This document shows positions 14,112 to 19,101 of a stretch of 33,910 bases of DNA, piece after piece (within the stretch, counting starts at the first letter, position 1; each line of letters starts with the position of its first letter). Source of the DNA: Cytophagales bacterium. GTDB lineage: Bacteria > Bacteroidota > Bacteroidia > Cytophagales > UBA9547. A model generated the notes under the pieces. It was not told where the DNA came from. It searched no databases and worked only from the letters and a program-made list of their open reading frames with translations. Made by a program: the position numbers and the translations under genes. The DNA is taken from NCBI GenBank assembly GCA_025360395.1, contig JANYCH010000199.1:1-33910 (forward strand), in the 5' to 3' direction.

Positions 14112-16583
14112 TTAATCGCTCTCCTTTTGACCTTTATGGAACCTGTCAAAAAGATCTAAACCTATATTCATTTTGCCATCCTTTTCACGGGCTCGAAGGC
14201 GGAGATTGCCGTGTTGAATATCTTTAATTTTAAAATATTCACTGTTATGGTCTTTTAAATTGGATAAAGGGATTTGAATACTCAAATCCGTTTTATGTTT
14301 AAAACTAAAAATACCTTCTAAATAAAGACTTAATACAGATGAGCTTACAACCATTTTTTCTATATAAAGTTCCTCGCCTTCTAAAACAAAAATGTTATTT
14401 ATTTCGTCGAACTGAATATGCATCATATCCCTATTTTTGAAAACCAAGTCTCCAACCTTTTTTAAAGGCAAGAAATTTTTCAATTTCCCCTGAGTTAACA
14501 GAATAGACATTCTACCCTTAATTGATCTTTGTATAGGCTCAAATGAACGGTTTGTTTGACAGTTAAAATTAACCTTAGAGTTAATTATCCCTTCCAGATT
14601 TTCGTTTGTAAGCGAACTTTGACCAAAATTGTTAAATCCATAGAATAGATTTGATGCATCAATATTCTTTAAATTAGCTTCCATTTTGACTTTACCAGAA
14701 TCATTATCCTGAAAAATATAAGCACCATTTAAGGTAATTATTCCTTTTGCAGGCAGATATAGTTTCCAATTATTCAATGATATAGACTCATTAGAAATAT
14801 CAACATTTCCACTTATATCATGAGCAACTAATTTCTTGTATTGAAATTTATGGAGGTTCACATCAAATTCCATCTCCATTTTACTTAAAATTTTATGCAA
14901 GTGACCCATGAATGGTTTAGTTACTTTTATATCATTTTCATCATATTTATGATCTCTTTTAACGAGTAAGTTGTTTAAATTGAAATACGGTGATGATATT
15001 CTCATTTTTGCTTTAATATTATTTTCAGGAAAAAGAAGATAAGGAAGCATATTTTTAAGATCAGCTTGAATTCTGACCTGGTTCTCATTCATTTTACAGG
15101 ACAATCCTTTAACATTCATATCTGAATTAAGAAAATTTAAATCTCCGTTTATATTTGAGAAGGCGAGATGCTTTTTCAAAATATCTATTTTACCATCGGT
15201 TATATTTAAACCAGCATTTATATACCCTTTCATCATGATCGGGTCTGGAATTGTCTTCAAAGAAATGGGACCCTTTTGTTTAAGCTTAAATGAAAAATTG
15301 CCTCCCGAAAATTTATAAACAGAAGTATCTAAATAGTGATGAAAAGCTTTTAACGGACCACTTAATACAGCATCAACATTTGTTTGAGGAACATTTAAGT
15401 TGTGAAGGTCTCCTATTACTTTAAAGTTTATTTCCTTATAATTAAAATCTGAGGTCAGAATTTTGAGGACAGAATTTTCATCACTAGAAAGTTGAAGAGT
15501 ATCGTAATGATTATTGAAGACACCATTTAACTTTACATTTTCCAGAAAATATTCTATTAGTCTTACTCTACTATTTTCAATTTGAAAATTCACCAGAGCA
15601 AATGGCTGAATACCAGGTTTGGTATCTAACACCAAATGGACTTGGGCACTAAGTCCATCATCAACATGAAATTTATTAAGTACTTTCTGTAAATGTGTAT
15701 TCAATAATGAAATTGCTTTGTCATAATCGGTATTGGTTGTATTGATATCCAGGTATATTAGAGGCAGTTTCTTATTTAACCTACATTTTCCTGAAACTTC
15801 GTAAATCTGTCCTTCGCTATTTATTGATGACTGCAACAAAGTCAACAAACTGTCTGACTTATTATAACTCAAATGCAGCTTAAGTTCCAATTCCTTGTTT
15901 GCAAGAAATGGTCCTTTTAAATTATTAAACAATAAGCCTTCTGAAAAAACATGACCATTAACATGACAAACAACTTGATTTTCCAATTTCTTAACTCTTA
16001 TTAAGACGTCATTACAAGCAAGTTGAATCCGTTTTTTTTTCTTATCATCCAAATAGACCAACGATACTTTTTTAAAGACTATTTTTTTAAGGTCAAAGTC
16101 CATTAAGGAGGACTTTACACTTTTGGTGGTATCAGACTTTAATGACTTTCTGGAGAAAACAGACAGATTTGAATAACCTAAAGAATCTTTAAAGATGTTG
16201 AAACTGGCATTTTGAACTATTATACTTTTTACATCAAGTTCCTTTCGTAATAATTTAAAAAGATGAATCTGCAAATAGACTTTTTCAGCCTTGATTATTT
16301 CATTATTATAAACCGAGTCTTTTATCGTAAGGCCAATTAAAGTGACTGAAACAGATGGAAATTCTCTAAAAATGGTAAAGCTTATATTATTTAAATGTGC
16401 ACTTCCTGTAATTCCATTATCAATTTCTCTATTGAAATACGCAAGAATATCCTTTTTATGTATGCTGGCGATAGAATATGCTATTATAAGGAGACTTATT
16501 AAAAATAAGAAAAACCAGAAAAAAACTTTAAAAATAAAAAATACAAATCTTTTCATCAGCGGAGCATTAAAAAATAAAGCCAT
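14112..16583 (-). CDS. AsmA-like family protein
   Basis: Single N-terminal TM anchor, then ~780 aa of beta-rich sequence (FREFPSVSV, FNNFGQ..L...NLEG). True start may be the Met at residue 10. Confidence 0.75.
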   Translation of the reverse strand: MALFFNAPLMKRFVFFIFKVFFWFFLFLISLLIIAYSIASIHKKDILAYFNREIDNGITGSAHLNNISFTIFREFPSVSVTLIGLTIKDSVYNNEIIKAEKVYLQIHLFKLLRKELDVKSIIVQNASFNIFKDSLGYSNLSVFSRKSLKSDTTKSVKSSLMDFDLKKIVFKKVSLVYLDDKKKKRIQLACNDVLIRVKKLENQVVCHVNGHVFSEGLLFNNLKGPFLANKELELKLHLSYNKSDSLLTLLQSSINSEGQIYEVSGKCRLNKKLPLIYLDINTTNTDYDKAISLLNTHLQKVLNKFHVDDGLSAQVHLVLDTKPGIQPFALVNFQIENSRVRLIEYFLENVKLNGVFNNHYDTLQLSSDENSVLKILTSDFNYKEINFKVIGDLHNLNVPQTNVDAVLSGPLKAFHHYLDTSVYKFSGGNFSFKLKQKGPISLKTIPDPIMMKGYINAGLNITDGKIDILKKHLAFSNINGDLNFLNSDMNVKGLSCKMNENQVRIQADLKNMLPYLLFPENNIKAKMRISSPYFNLNNLLVKRDHKYDENDIKVTKPFMGHLHKILSKMEMEFDVNLHKFQYKKLVAHDISGNVDISNESISLNNWKLYLPAKGIITLNGAYIFQDNDSGKVKMEANLKNIDASNLFYGFNNFGQSSLTNENLEGIINSKVNFNCQTNRSFEPIQRSIKGRMSILLTQGKLKNFLPLKKVGDLVFKNRDMMHIQFDEINNIFVLEGEELYIEKMVVSSSVLSLYLEGIFSFKHKTDLSIQIPLSNLKDHNSEYFKIKDIQHGNLRLRAREKDGKMNIGLDLFDRFHKGQKESD

Positions 16584-16731
16584 GAAATTAATGGTTACTA
16601 TTTAATCAGAAAATTTAAAAAGAAAATGAATAGAATGGATAGAAATAACAATAAAATTTGGCTGAAATATAAAGAATGTCAGAATTAAATATGGATTTAT
16701 TATAAAAATAATTATTATTTCAGAATTAAAT

Positions 16732-16761
16732 TTTGTATTTTAAAATAAATATTTACCTTTG
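16732..16761 (+). promoter_or_regulatory. Bacteroidota primary-sigma promoter (-33/-7)
   Basis: TTTG at 16732-16735, 18-nt spacer, TACCTTTG at 16754-16761. Predicted +1 falls close to the ATG at 16765. Confidence 0.7.
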
Positions 16762-16764
16762 TTA

Positions 16765-16851
16765 ATGTTCAAGCCCGAACACATATCGACTTCTCTAAGG
16801 TTTAACCAAGACCTTCTCTGCACTTCAGATTTCTGTTGTTGTTGCCGCTAA
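16765..16851 (+). CDS. Putative poly-cysteine leader peptide MFKPEHISTSLRFNQDLLCTSDFCCCCR
   Basis: Manual translation, ATG 16765 to TAA 16849-16851. Codons TGT TGT TGT TGC at 16834-16845 plus TGC at 16819. Lies right after a promoter and upstream of tRNA-Cys. Confidence 0.7.
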   Translation: MFKPEHISTSLRFNQDLLCTSDFCCCCR

Positions 16852-16901
16852 CTTTCCGTCGCAACGCCTTCTATCATTTCTTTAATATAAACTTCTTCGA
16901 C

Positions 16902-17171
16902 ATGAATAAGTCAGAAATCAAATTAATAAGTTTTAAAAAATTCTTTACTAAATACTTCAAGTTTCATTCAGACATTATTGTTTTTAACCCGGATGCAGAT
17001 TATTCATATGAATTTAAGGATCCTCGCGTGTCGTTCCTTGAATTGAATATCAACAATGGCAACCAAAGAAAAGATTGGCTGGAGTACAGTTATTATCCCT
17101 TCTTAGGCTCTAGCCTAAATTTAAAAATAAACGATGAAAATGCATTATTTGGTTTTATAGGCAATAATTAA
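16902..17171 (+). CDS. Hypothetical small protein (89 aa)
   Basis: ATG 16902 is in frame within the 16836..17171 ORF. Fills the gap between the leader and tRNA-Cys; no recognised family. Confidence 0.6.
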   Translation: MNKSEIKLISFKKFFTKYFKFHSDIIVFNPDADYSYEFKDPRVSFLELNINNGNQRKDWLEYSYYPFLGSSLNLKINDENALFGFIGNN

Positions 17172-17177
17172 AAATTT

Positions 17178-17248
17178 GGCTACGTGTCCGAGTGGTTAGG
17201 TACGGGTCTGCAAAACCTTTTACAGCGGTTCGAATCCGCTCGTAGCCT
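17178..17248 (+). tRNA. tRNA-Cys (GCA)
   Basis: Acceptor stem GGCTACG/CGTAGCC, anticodon loop CT-GCA-AA (anticodon 17210-17212), T-arm AGCGG-TTCGAAT-CCGCT, discriminator U73. CCA is not encoded. Confidence 0.95.
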
Positions 17249-17276
17249 CAAGTGAAAGATTTTCTTTTTTAACTAG

Positions 17277-18509
17277 TTAGTTAAAGCAGAATATAAATTC
17301 AGTTCCGATATTTTTTTGACTGTTTACTTTGATAGATACATTATACTTATCTAAAAGCTTTTTTACAATATAAAGGCCCATACCTGTCCCTTCTATATCA
17401 TGATTGTCCATACGTTCAAACAGGTTAAATAACTTTCCTTGTTCTTCATCTGTCATCCCTCGACCGTTGTCTGCAACTGATAGATATTTTAGTCCATCCT
17501 GAGTAGTAAAATTCAGTTTAAGATAGGGAGCCCGGTCAGGATGTTTGTATTTTATTGCGTTTGTAATGAGGTTATAAAGCAAACTTTTAAAAGCAACCCT
17601 ATTAAAAGTAAAATCTTCAACTTCAGAGAAGTTTTCGACAATTATTGAATTTGAATTATTTATCAGGGAAGTGATACTTGTTTCAATCTCTTCTAATACC
17701 GGTTTAACTTTGAAAGTCTCGAAAGAGGTACCTTCATTTTCTTTTCTTATTATATCAATTAATTCATTAATGGTGTTTTTAAGTTGTACAATAGCGCCTT
17801 CCTGCATTTTAATTATTTCAAACACTTCTGTTGAAATGGGGCTTTCCAACTCATCTTCTAATGCACTTATAAGTGCTTCCAGATTTGCGACCGGCAATTT
17901 CAGATCGTGAGAGGCTGTATAAACAAACTGATCGAGGTTATTATTAAGACTAATAAGTTTTTGATTATAAATCTGCAATTCAGCTTCAATAGTTTTCCTT
18001 TTCTCTATTTCAGCATTGAGGTCTGCATTCTTTATGTTCAGATCAGCGGTTCTTTGCTGAACAATTAATTCAAGATTATTATATGCTTCTTCAAGGTTCC
18101 TTTGCTGAATGTAAATGTCAATAAAAGAATAAACTTTAGATCGGGTAATTACCGGATCTAAAGGCTTAAACAGATAATCAACAGCTCCTTTGCTGTAACC
18201 TTCGGAAACATATTTGGATTCGTGGTTCAGGGCTGTGACAAATATGATGGGTATATTTTGAGAAGTTTTAGATTTCTTCAAAAAAGAAGCAACCTCATAA
18301 CCATCCATTTCGGGCATTTGTACGTCTAAAAGTACCAAAGCAATATTGCCTTTGTAAGCAATTTTCAAAGCTTCGTTTCCCGAGGTTGCGCGAAGAAAAT
18401 TAACAGACCTTTCTTCTAAATTTAGCAAATTCTCAAGAGCATAAATATTTTCTTCCTTATCATCTACTATGAGGACGTTGACAGAAATATCCTTTGGGTT
18501 TGAATTCAT
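17277..18509 (-). CDS. Hybrid REC-HisKA-HATPase sensor kinase
   Basis: N-terminal REC (VDD, LLDVQMP, FKP), H-box ASHDLKLP, N-box NLITNAIKY, DNGRG and GTGMGL. Confidence 0.92.
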   Translation of the reverse strand: MNSNPKDISVNVLIVDDKEENIYALENLLNLEERSVNFLRATSGNEALKIAYKGNIALVLLDVQMPEMDGYEVASFLKKSKTSQNIPIIFVTALNHESKYVSEGYSKGAVDYLFKPLDPVITRSKVYSFIDIYIQQRNLEEAYNNLELIVQQRTADLNIKNADLNAEIEKRKTIEAELQIYNQKLISLNNNLDQFVYTASHDLKLPVANLEALISALEDELESPISTEVFEIIKMQEGAIVQLKNTINELIDIIRKENEGTSFETFKVKPVLEEIETSITSLINNSNSIIVENFSEVEDFTFNRVAFKSLLYNLITNAIKYKHPDRAPYLKLNFTTQDGLKYLSVADNGRGMTDEEQGKLFNLFERMDNHDIEGTGMGLYIVKKLLDKYNVSIKVNSQKNIGTEFIFCFN

Positions 18510-18513
18510 GTAA

Positions 18514-19101
18514 CTATAACGTTGACATTAATAATGACTGTATTTCCTCCAGTTTCAAAATGTGATCTATCTTAACCCTTTCAATTGCAGAAAGTGGCAT
18601 TGTTTTACTTATTGCCTCCATTGGATCCTGCACAATAGTCAGGCCACCCATTTCAGAGATTGCCTTTAATCCCTGGCTACCATCAGAATTTGCTCCTGTC
18701 AAAAGTATACCTATAAGTTTGTTTCGAAAAACCAATGAAGCGCTTTCAAATACTATGTCAATTGAAGGTCTTGAAAAAAGGACATTTTCAGAAACATCTA
18801 ATGAAAAGGTCCTGTCTTTTTCTACTAATACATGATAATTTGCCGGGACAAGATATATGGTTCCTGGACGAATTTCTTCTTTATCAGTTACTTCTTTAGT
18901 ATAAAGCCGGGTATTTTTTGTAATAACTGAACACAGGTTGCTTTCTACATTTTTTTGACGGTGAACTACAACAACAATCGGCAAAGGAAAGAAAACTGGC
19001 AAATCTTTTACGATTTTAATAACCGCTTCCATTCCTCCCCAGGATCCTCCGATCACAATGGCTTCGTAACCATTTTTTTTTATTTTAAAATTTTCTTCCA
19101 T
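18514..19101 (-). CDS. cheB: CheB-type methylesterase, catalytic domain only
   Basis: Catalytic Ser (GGSWGG), His (VVVH) and Asp (LTGANSDG); SRPSID; no REC domain. Confidence 0.9.
   Translation of the reverse strand: MEENFKIKKNGYEAIVIGGSWGGMEAVIKIVKDLPVFFPLPIVVVVHRQKNVESNLCSVITKNTRLYTKEVTDKEEIRPGTIYLVPANYHVLVEKDRTFSLDVSENVLFSRPSIDIVFESASLVFRNKLIGILLTGANSDGSQGLKAISEMGGLTIVQDPMEAISKTMPLSAIERVKIDHILKLEEIQSLLMSTL

Follow-up and report, generated by a model that had tools for sequence, protein, structure and literature searches.

A polycysteine leader upstream of a MetY-derived mini-protein gene and a tRNA-Cys gene in Cytophagales, a candidate cysteine-responsive attenuator

We analysed a 33,910-nucleotide stretch of DNA (the window; contig JANYCH010000199.1) from a soil/rock Cytophagales bacterium, within which a Bacteroidota-type promoter is followed by a 28-codon short open reading frame (sORF), a C-rich and G-poor spacer, an open reading frame (ORF) of 89 amino acids (aa) and a tRNA-Cys gene. 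We refer to this arrangement as a polycysteine leader unit and list its parts in Table 1. The sORF does carry the terminal run of Cys codons reported in a preliminary description made from the letters of this DNA; its product ends in CCCCR, and the frame with these four consecutive Cys codons lies 50 nt before the 89-aa ORF. The flanking genes lie on the opposite strand, making the leader-ORF-tRNA stretch a compact unit of its own. On the strand of the unit the leader promoter is the sole exact TAnnTTTG box upstream of the tRNA, both here and in the three homologous loci described below (4/4 loci), and the absence of another such box suggests that the sORF, the 89-aa ORF and tRNA-Cys are carried on one transcript.

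Table 1. Features of the polycysteine leader unit (positions in the window)
Feature	Position	Strand	Details
Bacteroidota-type promoter	16732..16761	+	TTTG at 16732-16735; -7 box TACCTTTG at 16754-16761; from sequence
Leader sORF MFKPEHISTSLRFNQDLLCTSDFCCCCR (then stop)	16765..16851	+	28 codons; ATG at 16765, TAA at 16849-16851
Cys run TGT TGT TGT TGC	16834..16845	+	four consecutive Cys codons; a fifth Cys codon at 16819-16821
P1 5' arm GAUUUCUG	16828..16835	+	Asp, Phe and first two bases of the run's first Cys codon
P1 3' arm CAGAAAUC	16912..16919	+	codons 4-6 of the 89-aa ORF (+11..+18)
Hairpin P2, UGUUGC(C)GC ... G(U)C.GCAACG	16840..16866	+	in the minimum free energy fold; last Cys codons pair with the downstream GCAAC tract
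Spacer	16852..16901	+	A11 C15 G4 T20; pyrimidine/C-rich, G-poor
Hairpin P3 (ACUU/AAGU, UUC/GAA)	16891..16911	+	AUG of the 89-aa ORF in the loop
89-aa ORF	16902..17171	+	first ~51 residues homologous to a MetY-like N-terminus, then a 38-residue tail of its own
tRNA-Cys (GCA)	17178..17249	+	ARAGORN; Rfam RF00005, 53.5 bits; 6 nt past the ORF stop

The full stretch was recovered in one of 61 related genomes (G002, same genus; contig C359) at 78% identity, with the same promoter, an sORF of equal length and frame ending in SDSCCCCC (five Cys codons), the 89-aa ORF and the tRNA. A profile of the three known 89-aa-type proteins matched a second G002 site, on contig C403, where the leader MFNPELISQFTRNGNLFFQMFNRCCCCC (ending in NRCCCCC, with five consecutive Cys codons) precedes a 403-aa protein and a tRNA-Cys gene. 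A search of metagenome contigs with an alignment of MetY-like proteins gave one useful locus, L114 (49% protein identity), in which the promoter, an ATG at +1, a leader ending in FYCCCACC, a 407-aa protein and tRNA-Cys follow one another. The order promoter, Cys-run sORF, MetY-like ORF and tRNA-Cys is thus found in 4/4 loci, and the geometry of the promoter is identical in all of them. In Flavobacterium psychrophilum the TAnnTTTG -7 box occupies -12 to -5 (PMC9723704). With this spacing, the predicted +1 of C403 and L114 coincides with the A of the sORF start codon, ATG, and that of the window and C359 falls one base away from it. By this geometry the sORF mRNA is probably leaderless. The list of ORFs that accompanied the sequence opens the sORF frame at an upstream TTG, which is located within the promoter.

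The 89-aa protein belongs to a family with three members in a set of 5.8 billion proteins. No Pfam or NCBIfam family was found for it, membership of PF01053 included, and a search with it of the genome-contig and metagenome-contig collections gave no loci. Compared with C359 the ORF has a ratio of nonsynonymous to synonymous substitution rates of 0.17 (NG86) or 0.29 (YN00), with third codon positions accounting for 40/73 of the differences; this low ratio, indicative of purifying selection, identifies the ORF as a real gene rather than debris. Two ways of joining the sORF region to this frame were discarded. An N-terminal extension from TTG 16836 (111 aa) is ruled out by a 2-nt gap in the ortholog spacer, and a frameshift at the Cys run that would lead ribosomes into the ORF by the same gap together with the reasoning that tRNA-Cys would be unable to re-pair on UUG. 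An AlphaFold2 model built from the three sequences had a mean predicted local distance difference test score of 49.6 and was not used.

The first ~51 residues of the 89-aa protein match the N-terminus of a MetY-like subfamily that lacks the catalytic lysine, the homology being limited to residues 4-51 of the 403-aa protein at C403 (hhalign probability 94.6%, E 6.8e-8; hidden Markov model E 7.8e-10). Full-length relatives match the Cys_Met_Meta_PP and MetY models, the 403-aa product at C403 with E 9.8e-35 for PF01053 and with 171.7 bits for TIGR01326, whose cut-off is 495 bits. The subfamily comprises 13 proteins of 43-100% identity; ordinary O-acetylhomoserine sulfhydrylases reach 32-38%. In canonical and solved enzymes the motif reads SATK(W), with a K that carries pyridoxal phosphate (PLP). 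The subfamily has SLED(Y/F) instead, placing D at the lysine position; it also lacks the N-terminal segment and one C-terminal segment of canonical MetY. The window ORF retains residues 4-51 alone. The subfamily was detected in 9/401 sampled genomes of the order (E <= 1e-79) and in 0/401 genomes of a class-wide sample at E <= 1e-78, and a genome-contig search with the MetY-like alignment returned 80 loci, every one of them canonical MetY at 31-37% identity. In one member, protein P0005, the annotated sequence starts 55 residues too early: its own polyCys leader has been translated in the Val frame (VVVV) as part of the protein, an annotation artefact that hides the leader.

The tRNA-Cys gene stands 6-19 nt behind the ORF in 4/4 loci (18 nt in C403, 19 nt in L114). 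In a comparison of the window, L002, L033, L114 and L149, the leader-linked tRNA-Cys genes were 83-99% identical to one another and 76-85% identical to copies linked to rpsA, so by sequence they form a distinct isodecoder lineage. Of 72 positions, about 13 distinguish the two isodecoders. Among relatives rpsA adjoins tRNA-Cys in 15 of 28 loci, and G002 has such a copy as well; in none of the 28 other tRNA-Cys loci of relatives was a run of three Cys codons found beside the tRNA. The assembly of the window is 85% complete with 16 tRNAs, and rpsA is not present in it. The tRNA-Cys at C403 has A1 opposite G72 in the acceptor stem.

Terminal Cys runs are not confined to the tRNA-linked loci. They occur on otherwise unrelated peptides before sulfur amino-acid genes in at least nine loci, and since the leader peptides share the terminal run only, they resemble a codon sensor rather than a peptide product. 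Lysine-less genes are preceded by polyCys sORFs in G400 (L116, ending in CCCCCPC) and G380 (L123, ending in CCCC), and an sORF with CCKSC was read by eye in G315 (L117). At L125 (545-759; G164:C14) a SAM (S-adenosylmethionine) riboswitch (RF00162, 65.2 bits) is directly followed by an sORF ending in ICCCMCCCC, an OsmC-like gene and canonical MetY, an arrangement predicted to sense SAM and Cys in tandem within one leader. The genome of the window itself contains 40 short frames with three or more Cys codons in a row, of which two are convincing besides the one described here. The first (G000:C223:18818-18895; L145 519-596), MEEFSVPSAIPFNRYKQLAYCCCCC, ends in YCCCCC; 5 nt past it lies a terminator-like hairpin with a T-run (L145 601-616), followed by a 223-aa ORF and a gene for a membrane protein without a Pfam or NCBIfam family, and from its sequence this sORF looks like a classical transcription attenuator. 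The other (G000:C210:4945-5028; L146 446-529), with SKKCCCCQ, lies 49 nt before a TonB-dependent receptor gene; the spacer is poor in G (C13/G1) and contains CAGCAACAC, with which the Cys codons pair. As far as sequence can tell, the use of polyCys leaders extends more widely within this order.

We then considered how such a run could act on the genes behind it. The preliminary description had proposed that the Cys codons of the leader base-pair with the downstream start region, and direct reading bears this out: GATTTCTG (16828-16835) is the exact reverse complement of CAGAAATC (16912-16919), and the two extension helices, TTGTT (16836-16840) with AATAA (16905-16909) and GTTG (16841-16844) with CGAC (16898-16901), are present on either side of the ATG (16902-16904) with one G-U pair each. 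The 8-bp helix, P1, is the sole perfect 8-bp inverted repeat in 16765-16945. Folding of 16765-16930, the check that could have removed the duplex from the ensemble, placed it in the minimum free energy (MFE) structure, a three-way junction closed by P1 and containing hairpins P2 and P3. Pair probabilities of P1 were 0.83-0.88 for transcripts ending at +162 or +177 and 0.96-0.99 for a transcript ending at +237. When the comparison was restricted to the Cys region (27 nt) against the start region (-20 to +20), 8 bp were reached in 4.3% and -13.3 kcal/mol in 4.5% of 1000 shuffles; these windows were set after the helix had been seen, and the p values are nominal.

In C359, 6/8 pairs of P1 are kept and one is changed on both sides (U-A to C-G), a double change that replaces Phe by Ser in the leader and, in the ORF, Glu by the Gly that is likewise found in the third known protein. 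RNAalifold of the window and C359 retained P1, the AUG hairpin and two hairpins within the sORF, with 2/28 pairs compensatory. The AUG hairpin, P3, has seven pairs that are invariant in C359 and an analogous hairpin in C403. The effect of a stalled ribosome was calculated by forcing its footprint single-stranded and taking the mean unpaired probability over -15 to +19 as the openness of the start region; with the footprint the window went from 0.40 to 0.58 and C359 from 0.44 to 0.51-0.57. In these calculations the start at 16902 of the window is freed in part, as first proposed; in C403 and L114 stalling brought no opening.

The local hairpin said to compete for the same bases, GTTGC (16841-16845) with GCAAC (16861-16865), exists and competes with the two extension helices; it does not compete with P1, inside which it is nested in the MFE structure. 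In the window this pairing of Cys run and spacer (P2) has an energy of -8.7 kcal/mol (p = 0.086). Across loci, the duplex between the Cys run and the downstream tract beat shuffled spacers in C403 (p 0.005), L116 (0.009) and L125 (0.001), was borderline in C210 (0.056) as in the window, and was non-significant in C359 (0.23), L114 (0.74), L123 (0.26) and C223 (0.96), with a Fisher combination over eight loci (C359 left out) of 4.9e-5. Hairpins of the P2 type are stronger than that of the window in C403, L116, L125 and C210.

The spacer has the composition first claimed for it, a count of 15 C against 4 G being confirmed. In the same genome, at least 15 C together with at most 4 G was found in 0.76% of 1315 stretches of 50 nt upstream of long ORFs. 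The block 16875-16899 is nearly invariant in C359, and the excess of C over G runs from 16740 to about 16980, covering the predicted transcript from its start to some 80 nt into the ORF. C-rich and G-poor RNA lies beside the leader stop, as in tna-type systems. In the four tRNA-linked loci, the spacers of 48-67 nt contain C15/G4, C12/G2, C11/G2 and C20/G6, in contrast to the polyCys loci with terminator-like or strong hairpins, which show no such skew (C223, C31/G26; L123, C20/G12; L125, C25/G24). A scan of 16600-17400 for intrinsic terminators gave no terminator-like site, and none after P2; none was found in the leaders of L114 or C403. With no intrinsic terminator between the leader ORF and the first gene, the window departs from the classical terminator/antiterminator design. 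A rho gene is present in the genome. Given this richness in C and poverty in G across the spacer and early ORF, and the lack of an intrinsic terminator, the untranslated RNA is likely also a candidate substrate for Rho, and a role for Rho in the unit, compatible as it is with the composition and the rho gene, may be entertained at somewhat less than an even chance.

Read together, the sequence features, the predicted folds and the sORF-ORF-tRNA architecture suggest the following mechanism, in which the transcription start, translation of the sORF, stalling and every regulatory consequence are predicted steps. A sigma-A-type promoter would start the mRNA at or next to the sORF AUG, and the time that a ribosome dwells on the four Cys codons would reflect how much charged tRNA-Cys is available. 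With ample supply it would reach the stop codon and leave, and the RNA would fold into the P1/P2/P3 three-way junction, which would limit access to the start region of the 89-aa ORF. Ribosomes of Bacteroidota do without Shine-Dalgarno pairing and need start regions to be open. Under a shortage of charged tRNA-Cys, the ribosome would dwell on 16834-16845 and cover the 5' arms of P1 and P2, allowing translation of the 89-aa ORF, and this translation would in turn set, by way of Rho, the amount of transcript that reaches the tRNA-Cys gene 6 nt downstream. That the polycysteine sORF is a Cys-responsive cis-regulator of its unit seems to us probable, and with good margin. For the explanation as a whole, in which the stretch serves a polycysteine leader-peptide attenuator as its sensor, with a P1-P2-P3 read-out and likely Rho, we judge the case evenly poised. 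P1 itself may be a working part of the sensor in the lineage of the window, as a lineage-specific read-out and not a family-wide one, a proposal we rate slightly below an even chance. More tentatively still, it is possible that the cargo of the sensor is the sensed tRNA, an accessory tRNA-Cys isodecoder, inherited along with a polycysteine leader and a MetY paralogue that has lost catalysis (or the 89-aa protein derived from it), which would be switched on when ribosomes stall for want of charged tRNA-Cys.

A number of findings weigh against this explanation, most of them concerning P1. A perfect 8-bp inverted repeat occurs at least once in 26.8% of 2000 dinucleotide shuffles of 16765-16945, and the 166-nt fold as a whole shows no unusual stability (z = -1.45; 14/200 shuffles equal it). 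P1 is carried by two sequences only, which are 78% identical; in C359 one pair is broken by a synonymous change, and the probability of the helix falls to 0.43-0.45 in the longer transcript. The two orthologs keep P1 with one compensatory pair, and an RNAalifold alignment of all four sequences, in which L114 aligns poorly, has 0 shared pairs. In C403 and L114 no helix joins Cys region and start region (p 0.73 and 0.72 for the duplex, with a pairing mass of 0.52 and 0.06); their start regions are already unpaired at 0.65 and 0.73, and stalling opens neither; in C403 the footprint even lowers openness from 0.65 to 0.50-0.59. Complementarity of this kind is found in three of nine polyCys loci, the window (p 0.045), C359 (0.059) and L116 (0.033), amounting to two independent cases of eight, and is missing from the other six. 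In L116 the Cys run perfectly matches 9 bp within the 20 nt before the AUG (-20 to -1). The predicted increase in accessibility is modest, too. With a ribosome placed at the stop codon the window reaches 0.56, nearly the stalled value, so that the P1 model rests on dwell time alone. Direct masking of a Rho utilization (rut) site by the stalled ribosome is doubtful, because the ribosome would cover at most ~15 nt of the spacer. Finally, that the tRNA-Cys of the window is an extra copy is suggested by the relatives and not by its own assembly, which is incomplete and lacks rpsA.

If P1 were accidental, the unit could still be regulated by Rho-dependent, tna-like attenuation, in which the C-rich and G-poor RNA would load Rho when the leader is translated fast, and stalling near the stop codon, or the downstream translation so permitted, would block termination. 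This is unlikely, though it accounts for a good deal: besides the Cys run, the G-poor, pyrimidine/C-rich spacer is the only feature common to all four tRNA-linked loci, terminator-like sites are missing from the window, L114 and C403, the polyCys loci that do have terminators or strong hairpins are without the skew, rho is present, and the start regions of C403 and L114 are open regardless of stalling. Rho has also been suggested for terminator-less actinobacterial Cys leaders in an earlier study (PMC1262725). These arguments are compositional, however, and the G-poor spacer is partly a corollary of hairpin absence; Bacteroidota Rho may differ in its rut preferences, the stalled ribosome reaches only the first spacer bases, and the compensatory change in P1 is left unexplained. 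Alternatively, P1 could be a chance match and the working structure the hairpin between the Cys codons and a downstream (RCA)n tract, P2 in the window, whose melting would be the signal with a read-out that depends on the locus. The excess of Cys run/spacer duplexes over shuffles in C403, L116 and L125, and nearly so in C210 and the window, speaks for it, as does the tract of L116, which ends at the base preceding the AUG, just like the pairing of Cys codons with the ribosome-binding region described in mycobacteria (10.1101/834739). The hairpin is nevertheless weak in the window and non-significant in four loci, its GCAAC 3' arm is not conserved in C359, and from locus to locus the 3' arm is found anywhere between 0 and -67 as counted from the start codon. 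We consider this reading improbable.

The P1-based attenuator also has to be set against two readings in which the logic is reversed or absent. Ribosomes that finish the sORF might scan the spacer and reinitiate at 16902, so that the ORF would be made when cysteine is plentiful, and less of it when ribosomes stall. The spacer, unstructured and pyrimidine-rich over 48-67 nt in each of four loci, would suit this, and reinitiation after leader genes has been proposed, Bacteroidetes included (PMC4833913). Such behaviour has no known precedent among Cys leaders and contradicts that of mycobacteria, and a Cys-free, MetY-derived cargo together with tRNA-Cys is better suited to induction under shortage; we think it most improbable. 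It is very unlikely, too, that the sORF is no sensor at all, being either untranslated or the source of a Cys-rich peptide with a function of its own, with the complementarity a coincidence. That 27% of shuffles give an 8-bp complement somewhere is in its favour, but the recurrence of Cys runs on unrelated peptides before sulfur amino-acid genes (>=9 loci) is not, nor is the pattern among the leaders, which keep only the Cys run, start and frame and have no modifying enzymes nearby.

The closest known counterpart of the attenuator proposed here is found in another phylum. In their report on mycobacterial polycysteine sORFs (Ms5788A, the 'Cys ribulon'), Canestrari et al. describe a leaderless sORF with a Cys run as first cistron, a feature predicted for our unit, and sulfur amino-acid-linked cargo with several sORFs per genome; a stalled ribosome is proposed to melt the duplex that hides the next start region, and in M. 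smegmatis the Cys codons pair with the ribosome-binding region, control being restored by compensatory mutants (10.1101/834739). Our unit differs in that the partner is codons 4-6 of the ORF with no Shine-Dalgarno sequence, in that the 5' arm consists mostly of the two codons preceding the run, and in its cargo, a non-catalytic MetY-derived mini-protein and tRNA-Cys; moreover, it is known from sequence only. Actinobacterial Cys-codon leaders, for which Seliverstov et al. 2005 (PMC1262725) propose Rho dependence, likewise have a Cys run near the leader stop, no terminator hairpin and a C-rich region behind. Translational attenuation of ermC and cat, cited in 10.1101/834739, shares the principle that a ribosome arrested on the leader opens a hairpin hiding the next start, the difference being that arrest there is caused by antibiotic and nascent peptide and not by a shortage of charged tRNA. 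The trpL, hisL, thrL and leuL attenuators also consist of a short leader ORF with a cluster of cognate codons near its stop, whereas neither an intrinsic terminator nor a terminator/antiterminator alternative was found in the window. The E. coli tna leader senses free tryptophan through its nascent peptide at the stop codon, in contrast to the starvation-type stalling on sense codons proposed here.

Cys-codon leaders have been proven in mycobacteria only, where the proposed principle is already known, and we found no report of them in Bacteroidota in the literature searched. What is new here is the phylum, the partner without a Shine-Dalgarno sequence and the cargo, which combines a tRNA-Cys lineage of its own with a conserved mini-protein descended from a MetY paralogue that is lysine-less. 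Because Cytophagales initiate translation without Shine-Dalgarno sequences, such leaders would provide a natural test of start-site accessibility alone as a means of regulation. That the leader should be linked, in conserved fashion, with a tRNA-Cys lineage of its own and with a MetY relative without the PLP lysine was unexpected. This linkage suggests that the response to cysteine shortage may involve tRNA supply itself and a protein descended from a sulfur-assimilation enzyme but no longer enzymatic. If the tRNA is indeed the cargo, stalling would form a feedback loop that sets tRNA supply, for example against cysteine shortage or loss of tRNA-Cys, and the unit would be the first known leader-peptide attenuator governing a tRNA gene.

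An Rfam 15 scan of 16500-17350 with E up to 10 detected the tRNA alone (53.5 bits), without a T-box or other family; three further matches were at chance level (E 6-9.9), far below their own thresholds. Two DNA read runs over the leader gave the source contig only and zero variants. The neighbouring genes are AsmA/DUF748-like (14112-16583, minus strand), a hybrid response-regulator/histidine kinase (17277-18509, minus strand) and, judged by eye, CheB-like (18514-19101, minus strand), and no sulfur-related gene is among these three.

Five genomes of one genus (L118-L122) lack a polyCys sORF and have a palindromic motif in common. This palindrome, TCTATAGAnTTAATA, lies upstream of lysine-less MetY-like genes in 5/151 loci (L118 1366-1380; L119 1345-1359; L120 2704-2718, minus strand; L121 2594-2608, minus strand; L123 1129-1143 and 1201-1215), both at loci that have no polyCys leader and next to one such leader; it is a possible operator for a regulator. 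Within the leader of the window, a 5-bp hairpin (16766-16781) at the 5' end of the predicted leaderless mRNA takes in the UG of the sORF AUG, and is invariant in the ortholog and of 4 bp in C403. A further hairpin within the sORF (16797-16815) persists in the ortholog, where one pair shows a compensatory change (U-A to C-G) and another is altered on one side only.

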